The position numbers were made by a program. Below are positions 6,001-9,000 of a stretch of DNA of 11,837 nucleotides, in pieces. Positions within the stretch are counted from its first letter, which is position 1. Every line of letters starts with the position of its first letter. The DNA is from a virus (taxonomy: Duplodnaviria > Heunggongvirae > Uroviricota > Caudoviricetes), in the IMG/VR virus record IMGVR_UViG_647533159_000005. One strand, 5' to 3'.

Positions 6001-9000
6001 ACGGGGATAACATCCCGTTTTAATTCACAACAGCGAACAGAGTAATTACAGGGGAAGGCATGACAACGCTGACCATTAACCGAAAACCGAAAGGCATTTA
6101 CGGCACGCAGTCAGAAACGACGCAGGCGGCACAGCAGCAGGATAAAACCACATCGGCGCATAAAGTGATACCCGGCAATCAGAACGCACAGCAGAAGCCC
6201 ACAGGGGCGACACCGTGGCGGCATATGACCAAACGCCAGCGTAAAAACCGCAGACGCGTTAACCGCCTTATTGAATTGTGGCCTGACTTATTCAACAGGG
6301 AAGCACCGAAGCCGCTGAAGGTGGGGATATTTGACGACCTGATGCGGGATATCGCCGCCAGGGGGCTGACATTCGGGCCGGGGGCATTACGTGCGACGCT
6401 GGCATCCTATGCGCAGTCTCCGCGCTATTACCGCGCCCTGATAGCTGGTGGCGCACGTTACGACCTGAAAGGCCAGCCATGTGGGGAAGTGACACCACAG
6501 GAACAGCAGGAGGCAGAAACGCGGCTGGCAGCACTGAATGAAAAGCGCAAACGTCAGGCGACAAAGGAGAGGACAGGCGCATGATTCGTGACAGCAAAGC
6601 GGAAGAACTGGAGACTAAAGGCCTGTACCGGAGAGCGGCGGCGCGGTGGGCTGAGGTCATGCAGCTGGTGAACACCGATAAGGAGCGCGAACAGGTGGCA
6701 AAGCGTCGTGCGGAATGCATCCGCAAGGCAGCACGCCCACCCGTTATGGCGGATAACTTCGGGGCGCTGAAAGAGGCTGTAAACCGCACTCATGCGGTGA
6801 TGGGGATGGAAGACGCGGGTAAATCCGTCTGGCGGAACTACCCGAAGCAGCCTGGCAGCAACCAGTGATGCCGGATATTATCCTGAAAAATGATCATCAC
6901 TCCCGTGGGCGGATAACATAAAATCCTGCATATGCGCACATACACAGACGAAGCCGGAACAATCCGGCTTTTTTTACGGGTCCTTCCGGAGGGGGGGGCC
7001 TTACCGTGGGGCGACGGACGCGCGGGAATCGCCAAATTTTCGCATTTTTATCGGTCATCACCACCAGCGCAATTTATTGATAATGAAGGTTAAAAAAAAT
7101 TCCCGGTGTCGAAAACGCCTGTTTTTTGTTCATCACTGAATCATGCGCATCATGATACCAAGATACCCGGTATTGCTGCGTGATAACCCACAGGACTGGT
7201 GGCGATGCGTTATGGTCCGTGCGTTGCCATCTTCCTGGCCTGATGGCATTATCCGGCATGAACGAGCGGTTATTCTCCGTACTCTTAATCGTTGTTCATG
7301 GTTATTTGCTTTGTGGTAGCTAACATTTCCTGATGGTTATTATCCTTCTGCCCCGTAATCACGGGGATTTTTTTACCCGCGTTCTGCCGTTCTCCCCTGT
7401 GCTGTTGGTAGCGTCACGATGTGTCACGGCATGTCACCATCACGTCACGCTGATTGCGAAAGCCAGGATTAACCAGTACCGGAACGGGTAGCCCGATGTA
7501 TTGTTACCGTCCTGCCGGCTGGTGGAGTAATTGATAACGGTTATCATCAACGGGAGGGGCAGATCAAATCCCTGTGGCCCTGGATGTCAGGGACCGCCTG
7601 CCAACCCTTCTTCGCATCGCCGCAGGTTCGAAAACTTTTTTTTGGGAAGGTGCGCACAGAGTTGATAGATAAAACCTATCAGAGAAAATCACGTCAAACC
7701 CGCGTCATTGCTGGCATCGTTAAAAAAACTCACTCCACCAGCAGACTAAAAAACCGCGATTTTTCCGGTTTTATGGGCTGAAAAGGGGCTCCCTAAAAAA
7801 CATCTCTCACACTGCCGGACGGAGACGGAGATTTTTACGGGTCCTTTCCGGAGGTCTGAATACCGGGGGTACGAATACGCGCAATTCTTAACTGTTTATG
7901 AAAATTTTTAGGGGAAAAGCGTGTCGGTACTTCTCGCGCATAACTGTTTGTTTTCATTAAAATCGACAATCGGAAACATACGACACCATAACACCGGAAA
8001 ATCCCGTTTTTCTGGCGTTTCATGTCGGAGGTGGTTTTTGATGAGGATTTGATAGATGAATGTTAACAAAAAGAGACTGGCGGAGATTTTCGGTGTTGAT
8101 CCGCGCACAATTGAACGCTGGCAGACGCAGGGCCTTCCTCATGCATCTGGTGGCGGAAAAGGCGTGGAAGTGACTTTCGACTCTGCACAGGTGATCGAAT
8201 GGTATGCCCAGAGGGAGAAGGACATCGAAAACGAAAAACTCCGCAGGGAGCTTGATGATTTACGTGCTGCTGGTGAATCAGATTTACAGCCAGGCACAAC
8301 AGAGTACGAACGCTACCGTCTCACCAAAGCACAGGCGGACGGGCAGGAACTGAAGAACGCCAGAGAGACAGGGGAAGTTATAGATACTGAGTTCGCACTC
8401 TGTGCGCTTCGTGGTCTGGCGCGCCAGATTTCTTCGATCATGGATAGTTTACCGCTCACAATGCAAAGGCAGTTCCCCGCGATGACTCCGGCAATGATCG
8501 AGGGCCTGAGGAAAGAAACAGCACGCGCCTGTAATGCGTGCGCTAAAACTGCCGATAATCTACCCCGCATTCTGGAAGACTACCTGATGGAAACAACCGG
8601 AAACGTGCCGGAGAAATTACGGCAACAGAAAGGTGAGCGACAACCGCGCAATTATTGAACAAAACAGAGAAAGGATCTGATAACGTCATTTTTGGCCCAA
8701 AATGACCACTGTCAGATCCTTTCTTTTTTTGATGATTTTACGATTAAACAATGAGTTACAGAGAAGAAGAACGGATCTGACTTTTCCCGAAAAATTTTCA
8801 TAAACAGTTAAGAATTGCGCGTACCCGTCCCCCCGGCGCTTAAGGTTCCGGAAAGGACCCGCAGGAAATAGCTACCGTAAGGCGTAATTAAATATCCGGG
8901 GATGTGCCACGGAACAGCCTGCTGAATACAGGTCAGCGTGATGACGGTAAATAAAGAGAATATACGAGAAGGAAAAATATTAGTTTAAAAACTAATGTCC

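Follow-up and report, generated by a model that had tools for sequence, protein, structure and literature searches.

What might a mobile element keep between two packaging sites, if not a gene? The question arises from an 11,837-nucleotide (nt) stretch of Caudoviricetes DNA (IMG/VR record IMGVR_UViG_647533159_000005; hereafter the window), in which about 800 bp (7040-7830) between two sequences resembling cohesive-end (cos) sites had been flagged by a first-pass annotation. In our analysis the window is recognizable as a phage satellite of the EcCICFT073 family within the phage-inducible chromosomal islands (PICIs), and the flagged stretch reads as the centre of a non-coding region (6950-8055) that interfaces with helper phages. 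Overall, we consider it probable, at roughly 60%, that this region is a row of cis-acting sites matched to the machines of helpers: cos sites for several terminases, together with an initiator-binding array that is likelier to be a decoy than an origin.

The gene order of the window is an integrase, fragments of a P4-alpha/DUF927-type primase-helicase, an iteron origin, SSB, ProQ/FinO, PerC, a gap and a Nu1-type small terminase gene (terS). The gap between PerC and terS is gene-free over 1.19 kb (6869-8055). This backbone is syntenic with that of EcCICFT073, the model E. coli PICI, and the cos(+)-rpp-cos(-) arrangement of that island is matched as well. What characterizes a PICI was found throughout: an integrase, a pri-rep gene with an iteron origin after it, genes lying predominantly on one strand, one or more cos sites, no virion structural module and a size of ~10-15 kb. 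In a relative from E. coli C5 the entire island is visible and adjoins yejO. Of 5,426 complete E. coli genomes, 51 contain related islands that are 87-94% identical. For the conservation tests we used 14 distinct satellite copies, namely the window and 13 relatives, all of them closely related, and the counts of copies given below refer to this set.

Cos sites and an iteron array in the gene-free region

The two flanking cos-like elements, A and B, proved to be real lambda-type cos homologues, each carrying the cosQ heptamer GGGTCCT. This heptamer occurs only four times in the window, at 6978 (A), at 7839 (B) and, on the minus strand, at 8860 (B') and 10445 (A'). Its position agrees with that of the annotated cosQ of phage 21; in lambda-type sites cosQ is expected ~25-30 nt upstream of the nick region. 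Over its whole length, cos A aligns with the interval between Rz and terS in the Shiga toxin (Stx)-type phage 1720a-02, up to the start of the phage terS, and the next gene after the cos region in that phage is a phrog_141 small terminase. The cosQ of cos A (6978-6984) is followed by a predicted 12-nt cohesive-end segment, GGGCGACGGACG, placed by alignment at 7009-7020. Two R-like TCATCAC boxes (7055-7061 and 7130-7136) are both conserved in 1720a-02, and a consensus site for integration host factor (IHF) lies at 7070-7082. The flagged stretch begins with 100 bp, 7040-7141, that are the cosB half of this site.

On the other side, cos B aligns across the entire annotated cos of phage 21 (cosQ, R3, I1, R2 and R1), with a divergent cosN. 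Its R3 (7920-7935) has 15 of 16 bases in common with the R3 of phage 21, and an R1-like site lies near 8017-8033. The terS gene that follows encodes a protein 62% identical to phage 21 gp1, near-identical in the N-terminal DNA-binding region, with R sites GTGTCGGTAC and CATGTCGG; no large terminase gene comes after it. Of the parts expected in a cosB, which are R sites for TerS and an IHF site, cos B has the 21-type R3 and the R1-like site beside a 21-like terS, and cos A has the TCATCAC boxes and the IHF-consensus site. The cosN segments of both, GGGCGACGGACG in A and GGGGTACGAATA in B, can be aligned with the lambda segment GGGCGGCGACCT, yet have diverged from it.

A third cos site, overlooked in the first-pass annotation, lies inside the flagged stretch itself. 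The segment 7529-7679 corresponds, at 77-80% identity, to what lies between the HNH and terS genes in phi467, vB_EcoS-689R5 and phages like them, and both of its boundaries are sharp, running from gene to gene in every phage comparison. In alignments, positions 7595-7604 fall on the annotated 10-nt cos site of phiP27 and on the right-hand physical end of HK97; sites of this type are expected to yield 10-nt 3' cohesive ends when terminase and HNH cut them. Like the cos sites of those two phages, the segment carries a G-rich box plus GATCAAATC and a GACCGCC motif at the cut site, and it equals them in overall length. The satellite copies form a clade of their own, with at least 90.7% identity to the window copy and at most 81% to copies in E. 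coli prophages. The phage sites are flanked by HNH and cognate terS and terL genes, whereas the satellite's is not. Neither an HNH gene nor a phrog_83-type terS was found among the window's open reading frames (ORFs), so this site would need a helper acting in trans. The suggestion that the stretch is cos-associated spacer DNA finds no support, given that it holds the cosB half of cos A, a full homologue of the HK97/phiP27-type cos and satellite-specific blocks conserved at >90%.

A short distance upstream of this third site lie the four helically phased GTCAC(G) repeats of the first-pass annotation. They are indeed present, as three copies of GTCACG and one of GTCACC, with the GTCAC cores beginning at 7413, 7423, 7433 and 7444. 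A three-copy pattern of this kind appeared in none of 200 shuffles of the window (chance expectation 0.00). The pattern GTCAC-N5-GTCAC-N5-GTCAC-N6-GTCAC was found in at least 120 IMG/VR contigs, and our comparison took in 117 non-satellite loci fetched from the matches listed. Two arrays were present in 76 of the 117 loci, typically ~260 bp apart, as within the initiator gene of locus L037. In 39 of the 41 loci with a single array, the array lies inside an O-like initiator gene; 38 of these were identified by tblastn matches to the phrog_3729 initiator of L037, and one (L061) by translation as an O-like variant. The other two single-array loci (L102 and L107) have non-coding arrays. The gene that hosts the arrays matches phrog_3729, "replication initiation protein", at 9e-256 and stands between cII-like and Ren-like genes. 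A single array has its five-base core in more than one reading frame, so the repeat exists at the DNA level, as do the lambda iterons inside gene O.

We take the satellite arrays to be homologous to the phage arrays, beyond mere similarity. Exact runs of 25-26 nt, comprising three cores and two spacers, are common to the arrays of the relatives and those of the phages. Among the satellite copies, variable sites made up 2 of 20 core positions versus 10 of 20 spacer positions (p = 0.014). The array is retained in relatives with unrelated replicases, a RepA helicase in L001 (the E. coli C5 island) and a DUF927 primase in L004. One repeat is deleted in L001. A tblastn search of the window with the O-like protein gave a best E of 0.29, and no window protein has an O-type DNA-binding domain. 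Because the array is kept despite differing replicases, the window encodes no O-type domain and the satellite has its own origin elsewhere, we regard the array as a copy of a helper-type origin element. The array was also considered as the satellite's own origin, and was ruled out in that role, the own origin being at 5385-5540. The proposal of a protein-binding array thus held as to kind, in the form of homology to phage iteron arrays, whereas an identity as a packaging or partition site fits less well. Of what defines an iteron origin, the array shows the phased repeats, but not an adjacent AT-rich unwinding element nor a cognate initiator in the same element. An AT-rich tract (ACAGATAAAGATACAGATAAAG...) comes after array 2 of the phages; the flanks of the satellite array have ~50% GC and are not AT-rich.

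The array and the HK97-type cos also point towards a common helper lineage. Of the E. coli phage records in INPHARED, just seven have this O N-terminus; four of them (689R5, 606R7, 640R1 and 813R8) also carry an HK97-type cos matching that of the satellite. The O gene of vB_EcoS-689R5 (protein URC08886.1), its arrays and the cos of that phage share one strand, with the same orientation as in the satellite. The distance between array and cos is 12 kb in the phage versus 80 bp in the satellite, from which it follows that the two were acquired separately and retained together. Among complete E. coli genomes, the GTCACG-type O-like "replisome organizer" gene is present in ~31%, almost always at ≥99% identity to the probe, and an HK97-type cos adjoining HNH genes in ~19%. 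In genomes that bear the satellite, the O gene was found in 17 of 27 (p = 7e-4 against the 31% background) and a second HK97-type cos in 13 of 28 (p = 9e-4 against the 19% background), with no phylogeny correction in either test.

Table 1. Positions and characteristics of the features discussed, in window coordinates.
Feature	Position	Strand	Description
Own origin	5385-5540	+	TGCGGGTTA twice, 50-bp AT-rich core, 3.4 repeats of TAACCCGCAAAA type; directly 3' of the pri-rep remnant
ProQ/FinO-family RNA-chaperone gene	6060-6584		Just upstream of the non-coding region, ~700 bp from the candidate RNA of unit X
T1, intrinsic terminator	6950-6975	+	9-bp hairpin GAAGCCGGA/UCCGGCUUU and U7; -14.1 kcal/mol, z -3.6
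Cos A	6976-7141	+	Lambda architecture; aligned to 1720a-02
Unit X	7139-7405	+	Satellite-specific conserved non-coding unit with promoter-like site, core and T2
T2, intrinsic terminator	7351-7374	+ only	CCCCGU-AAUC-ACGGGG and U7; 6-bp GC-rich stem, 4-nt loop
Iteron array	7413-7449	+	GTCACG / GTCACG / GTCACC / GTCACG; spacing 10, 10 and 11 bp
Linker Y	7450-7528		Variable; no invariant positions in 7452-7511; partly deleted in L009 and L010
HK97/phiP27-type cos	7529-7679	+	Conserved box GGGAGGGGCAGATCAAATC at 7552-7570; predicted 10-nt cohesive-end site CGCCTGCCAA at 7595-7604
Unit Z	7680-7830	+	Satellite-specific leader from the HK97-type cos to cos B; AT-rich hairpin 7739-7780; overlaps a promoter-like site at 7662-7689
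Cos B	7831-8055	+	Phage-21-type; cosQ 7839-7845; predicted cohesive-end segment GGGGTACGAATA at 7866-7877
Small terminase gene terS	8056-8658	+	Nu1 / phage 21 gp1 family; Pfam Phage_Nu1 6e-68
Cos B'	8660-8861	-	Inverted cos of lambda architecture; own R-site type, TGTCAGATCC, three times
Cos A'	10361-10446	-	Inverted copy of the cos A core (cosQ and cosN-like segment); partner of 6999-7063

Unit X and the remaining parts of the island

Upstream of the iterons lies unit X, which was found in 28 E. coli genomes only, every time within this satellite. The interval 7130-7540 had no BLAST match among 50,697 phage records. Unit X had none among 72,556 plasmids, where the HK97-type cos core was the only part of the region to match, in phage-plasmids. 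The unit contains a sigma-70-like promoter with a -35 box at 7224-7229, a -10 box at 7247-7252 and a TG upstream of the latter (extended -10). The adjoining block 7252-7311 is near-invariant among the relatives and is the most conserved of the region, and T2 is unchanged across the 14 copies. Together these parts would yield a candidate RNA of ~115 nt (~7259-7374), whose predicted fold reached a z of -2.8 to -2.9 relative to shuffles. The only two substitutions in its 5' stem both preserve pairing. The consensus fold of nine distinct copies showed no covariation (covariation term -0.02), and several relatives have a disrupted second hairpin. A covariance-model scan, which the first-pass annotation had proposed, was run against Rfam 15 and brought up nothing relevant: no family reached the gathering threshold, and the best permissive matches had E = 7-10. 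When the window was searched for RNA targets by duplex energy, the scores were no better than those of shuffled controls. Complementary k-mers reached no more than 10-12 nt in the window, three phage loci and the CFT073 region, as expected by chance. That unit X encodes a ~115-nt RNA is plausible from its sequence features, and the data allow a DNA-level site or an insulating terminator equally well. The small RNA ending at 7374 that had been suggested earlier thus gains a promoter-like site, a near-invariant block and a favourable fold, but neither covariation nor an Rfam family nor a target.

Both plus-strand terminators reported in the first pass exist. T2 lies where it had been placed, and T1, with its limits corrected to 6950-6975, falls outside 7040-7830. 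T1 closes the PerC operon, and its U-run runs straight into the cosQ of cos A. A 74-bp insertion (TGTGTTGGTATGGGGAGTTCTGGCAATGG...TTTTTTACGTTCATTAT) was observed between T2 and the iterons, at the equivalents of 7397/7398, in L008, L015, L019 and L022, and also in L009 and L010.

No convincing gene emerged from the stretch, in line with the earlier impression. The ORF described as 59 aa at 7143-7322 does exist, but it really spans 7143-7319 and encodes 58 aa. We considered all four small ORFs in 7135-7491 as genes and rejected them. Every one is broken in some of the 14 copies, by stop codons or frameshifts, and no bias by codon position or third-position excess was seen. Stop codons, a frameshift or a 28-nt deletion interrupt the 58-aa frame in 7 of the 14, and its substitutions are distributed over codon positions 1, 2 and 3 as 10:7:7. 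The 47-aa ORF with a GTG start (7180-7323), which overlaps it, has lost its frame in 4 of the 14.

The leader Z, between the HK97-type cos and cos B, is likewise confined to the satellite: 7670-7850 had no BLAST match among the 50,697 phage records. Its conservation in the relatives is 88-99% over 7672-7811 and 64% over 7812-7831. Beyond terS, the cos cores recur as nested inverted repeats, 84-85% identical, which pair 7838-7917 with 8861-8782 and 6999-7063 with 10425-10361. In cos B' (8660-8790, minus strand) the boxes are laid out as in lambda, R3 and then R2-hairpin-R1; all of them are TGTCAGATCC, unlike the boxes of lambda or phage 21. No terS follows cos B' in the minus orientation. The terS segment is inverted in L006, L007 and L010, and the whole segment from A to A' occurs in both directions with respect to the backbone of the island (L004, L005, L006, L008 and L010). 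Judging from these alignments, the packaging module appears invertible. Unit X, the iterons, the HK97-type cos, Z and cos B keep the same order in all 14 copies. The predicted cohesive-end sequence at the position of cos B was seen to differ between islands, with GGGGTACGAATA in the window, a GGGCGGCAGACG-like form in E. coli C5 and the sequence of lambda, GGGCGGCGACCT, in EcCICFT073 (L264). This variation suggests a switching of helper large-terminase specificities.

The satellite's own origin agrees in layout with the published description of PICI origins, in which two sets of iterons surround an AT-rich region 3' of rep (PMC6092414). The pri-rep gene preceding it is split into two ORFs (4054-4713 and 4866-5363) and is ~800 bp short relative to the 714-aa DUF927 protein of L004. 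This deletion may leave the window's copy of the island unable to replicate alone. As cargo, a K88/F4-family fimbrial subunit gene (Pfam 2.6e-52) stands alone at 9188-9988 between cos B' and cos A'; at the equivalent place, relatives have a pyocin/immunity pair or different cargo. A second PerC paralogue is found at the far end of the window (11529-11837), with ~71-80% DNA identity over the first 40-90 nt. When GTDB genomes were searched with the ProQ/FinO protein, one locus was obtained, in E. ruysiae, with another downstream module and without a cos-like motif. No capsid-size redirection gene was evident in the window.

Weighing the explanations

If the region is a row of helper-matched sites, its working may be pictured as follows. 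After induction, the helper terminase present, whatever its type, would find a suitable cos at which to cut the satellite concatemers and package them, the cos sites differing in TerS specificity. Cos A would serve the terminases of Stx-type phages such as 1720a-02, the HK97/phiP27-type cos would serve HNH-dependent terminases of the HK97 type, and cos B would be served by the satellite's own 21-like TerS. The iteron array would bind the helper's O-like initiator and, once bound, would titrate or handcuff it, damping helper replication. We favour a decoy over a second origin because the array has neither an AT-rich unwinding element nor a cognate initiator gene, and because the satellite's own origin is elsewhere. 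A more specific version is that unit X and the iterons jointly form a satellite-borne origin decoy, a counterpart in nature to the oop-plus-iteron inhibition phenotype of lambda. Upon amplification of the satellite, this decoy would sequester or handcuff the O-like initiator and stop theta replication of the helper. As it would adjoin the cos of the matching helper, the same helper would be both sabotaged and exploited for packaging. This version is tentative, and we lean towards doubting it.

Several points weigh against the row of helper-matched sites. Binding of GTCACG by an O-like protein is extrapolated from the lambda model, in which the iterons lie inside gene O. Cleavage of the HK97-type cos by a given helper is uncertain, as the segment has 77-87% identity to any phage copy, and its predicted 10-nt site, CGCCTGCCAA, is unlike both CGCCGCCAAA of HK97 and CGCCCGCCCC of phiP27. 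The cosN of cos B differs from that of lambda/21 at about half of the 12 positions. With 14 distinct satellite copies, all closely related, the conservation tests are of low power. The p-values for co-residence ignore phylogeny, and many of the carriers are Shiga toxin-producing E. coli (STEC) or livestock strains rich in lambdoid prophages. In addition, one of the 17 O-gene co-carriers may be a second copy of unit X instead, and the four phage records with both O gene and cos, which come from one study, may be near-identical.

How do other explanations fare against the same observations? That the main product of the region is a ~115-nt regulatory RNA (7259-7374) made from the 7224-7252 promoter, with the repeats and the cos secondary, is a real possibility, though not what we expect. 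The extended -10 promoter-like site and the strong terminator would fit such a product, as would the conservation of 7252-7311, the highest of the region, the fold z of -2.8 and the fact that both 5'-stem substitutions keep the pair, and the ProQ/FinO gene 700 bp upstream suggests a protein of which the RNA may be a client. The covariation term, the lack of an Rfam family, the second hairpin broken in several relatives and the failure of any target to rise above shuffled controls argue the other way, and a DNA-level constraint accounts for the invariance equally well. The RNA is in any case compatible with the row of helper-matched sites. Less support can be given to a gene: even with RefSeq listing a "hypothetical protein" for the 58-aa or the 47-aa ORF in some relatives, the annotations conflict on strand and frame, and with the frames lost as described above a real small protein is hardly credible.

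The repeats themselves allow further readings. The array might be a working second origin, fired by the helper's O-like initiator and helicase loader, chiefly where the satellite's own primase-helicase is deleted. Its match to phage origin arrays, the truncation of the window's pri-rep relative to L004 and the frequent presence of a matching O gene in carrier genomes would all agree with this. We nevertheless hold it unlikely, considering that no AT-rich unwinding region stands beside the array as it does beside phage array 2, that relatives whose replicases are intact have the array just the same, and that a complete cognate origin already exists at 5385-5540. It is also improbable that the stretch is a non-functional mosaic, in which fragments from prophage recombination are tolerated between a functional cos A and a functional cos B. 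Cassettes are swapped, the 74-bp insertion is variable, L001 has lost a repeat and inversions occur at the cos-like repeats, as a mosaic would predict. Against this stand the collinearity of X, iterons, HK97-type cos, Z and cos B in all 14 copies, the precise gene-to-gene boundaries of the captured cos at 7529 and 7679, and the conservation of the iteron cores while the spacers drift; the separate acquisition and joint retention of array and cos count against it too. Finally, the helical phasing and the place of the repeats 80 bp upstream of a cos would suit a platform for a satellite or host protein that acts in packaging, partition or regulation, for example an extra cosB-like platform for TerS at the HK97-type cos. 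This we regard as very unlikely. No such repeats occur near the cos of HK97-type phages, and outside the satellite family the pattern is found, among the matches listed, almost only inside O-like initiator genes. No window ORF resembles an initiator DNA-binding domain, and the satellite TerS is 21-like, with R sites that differ from the repeats.

Known systems and what the region would mean for satellites

EcCICFT073 is known to have two cos sites, a non-phage cosB and the protein Rpp, which retargets the helper TerS (Fillol-Salom 2018 and 2019; PMC6092414, PMC6739421). In E. coli CFT073 (NC_004431), its cos sites at 17529(+) and 18339(-) flank a 144-aa rppA, in the same layout as cos B, terS and cos B' here. 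The two islands are alike in int, an Icd-like gene, DUF4222, a primase with an iteron origin, SSB and PerC, as well as in lambda-type cos sites with cosQ GGGTCCT, inverted around a TerS-like gene. The differences lie in the packaging region. Both cos sites of EcCICFT073 have the lambda cosN and are used with Rpp, whereas the window element carries three cos-like sites in tandem and two more that are inverted, five in all, along with at least three types of cosB, non-lambda variants of cosN and a full 21-type TerS in place of Rpp. The HK97-type cos and the GTCACG array are present in the window element and absent from EcCICFT073. A further parallel is offered by cos-type Staphylococcus aureus pathogenicity islands (SaPIs) of the SaPIbov5 type, the known case of a satellite with an HNH-type cos, which are outlined as carrying a satellite copy of the helper's HNH-type cos and as being packaged by the helper terminase (PMC6092414, PMC5052747). 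There the host and the sequences are different, and in the window the HNH-type cos is one of several cos types in a row.

For the array, the closest comparison is lambda. The lambda origin lies in gene O, so that its iterons are inside the initiator gene, as in the phages with GTCACG-type arrays. Lambda replication is silenced in trans by plasmids that carry oop, a gene for a short terminated RNA, and the iterons ITN3-4 but lack the AT-rich part (Hayes 2012, PMC3349717). The satellite likewise places a promoter-terminator unit 38 bp from four iterons that have no AT-rich flank. Unlike that system, it shows no sequence homology to oop or to the lambda iterons, and its RNA unit points to the iterons, while oop points away. 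A comparable principle is known from plasmids as iteron incompatibility, titration or handcuffing, where extra initiator-binding repeats in trans lower the replication of the cognate replicon. In the satellite, the extra iterons would target the helper phage.

In the literature searched, there was no account of a PICI whose tandem cos sites stem from distinct packaging families, of an HK97-type cos in the EcCICFT073-type PICI family, or of helper-origin iterons in a satellite, including iterons aimed at the helper. An origin mimic, if confirmed, would be new in kind. If the array binds the initiator, mimicry of a cis-acting replication site would be a new principle in the conflict between satellite and helper. 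If the joint decoy of unit X and iterons is real, it would be a new class of satellite interference, one that hits replication initiation through DNA mimicry instead of through a protein.

Why some E. coli PICIs carry two different cos sites has been left open (PMC6739421). The alignments presented here suggest an answer, in that each cos copy matches a different helper packaging system (Stx-phage, HK97/HNH, phage 21 and the inverted variants), so that one small island could ride many E. coli prophages. Such sites would also be useful in the construction of cosmid-like delivery vectors open to a wide range of helpers.

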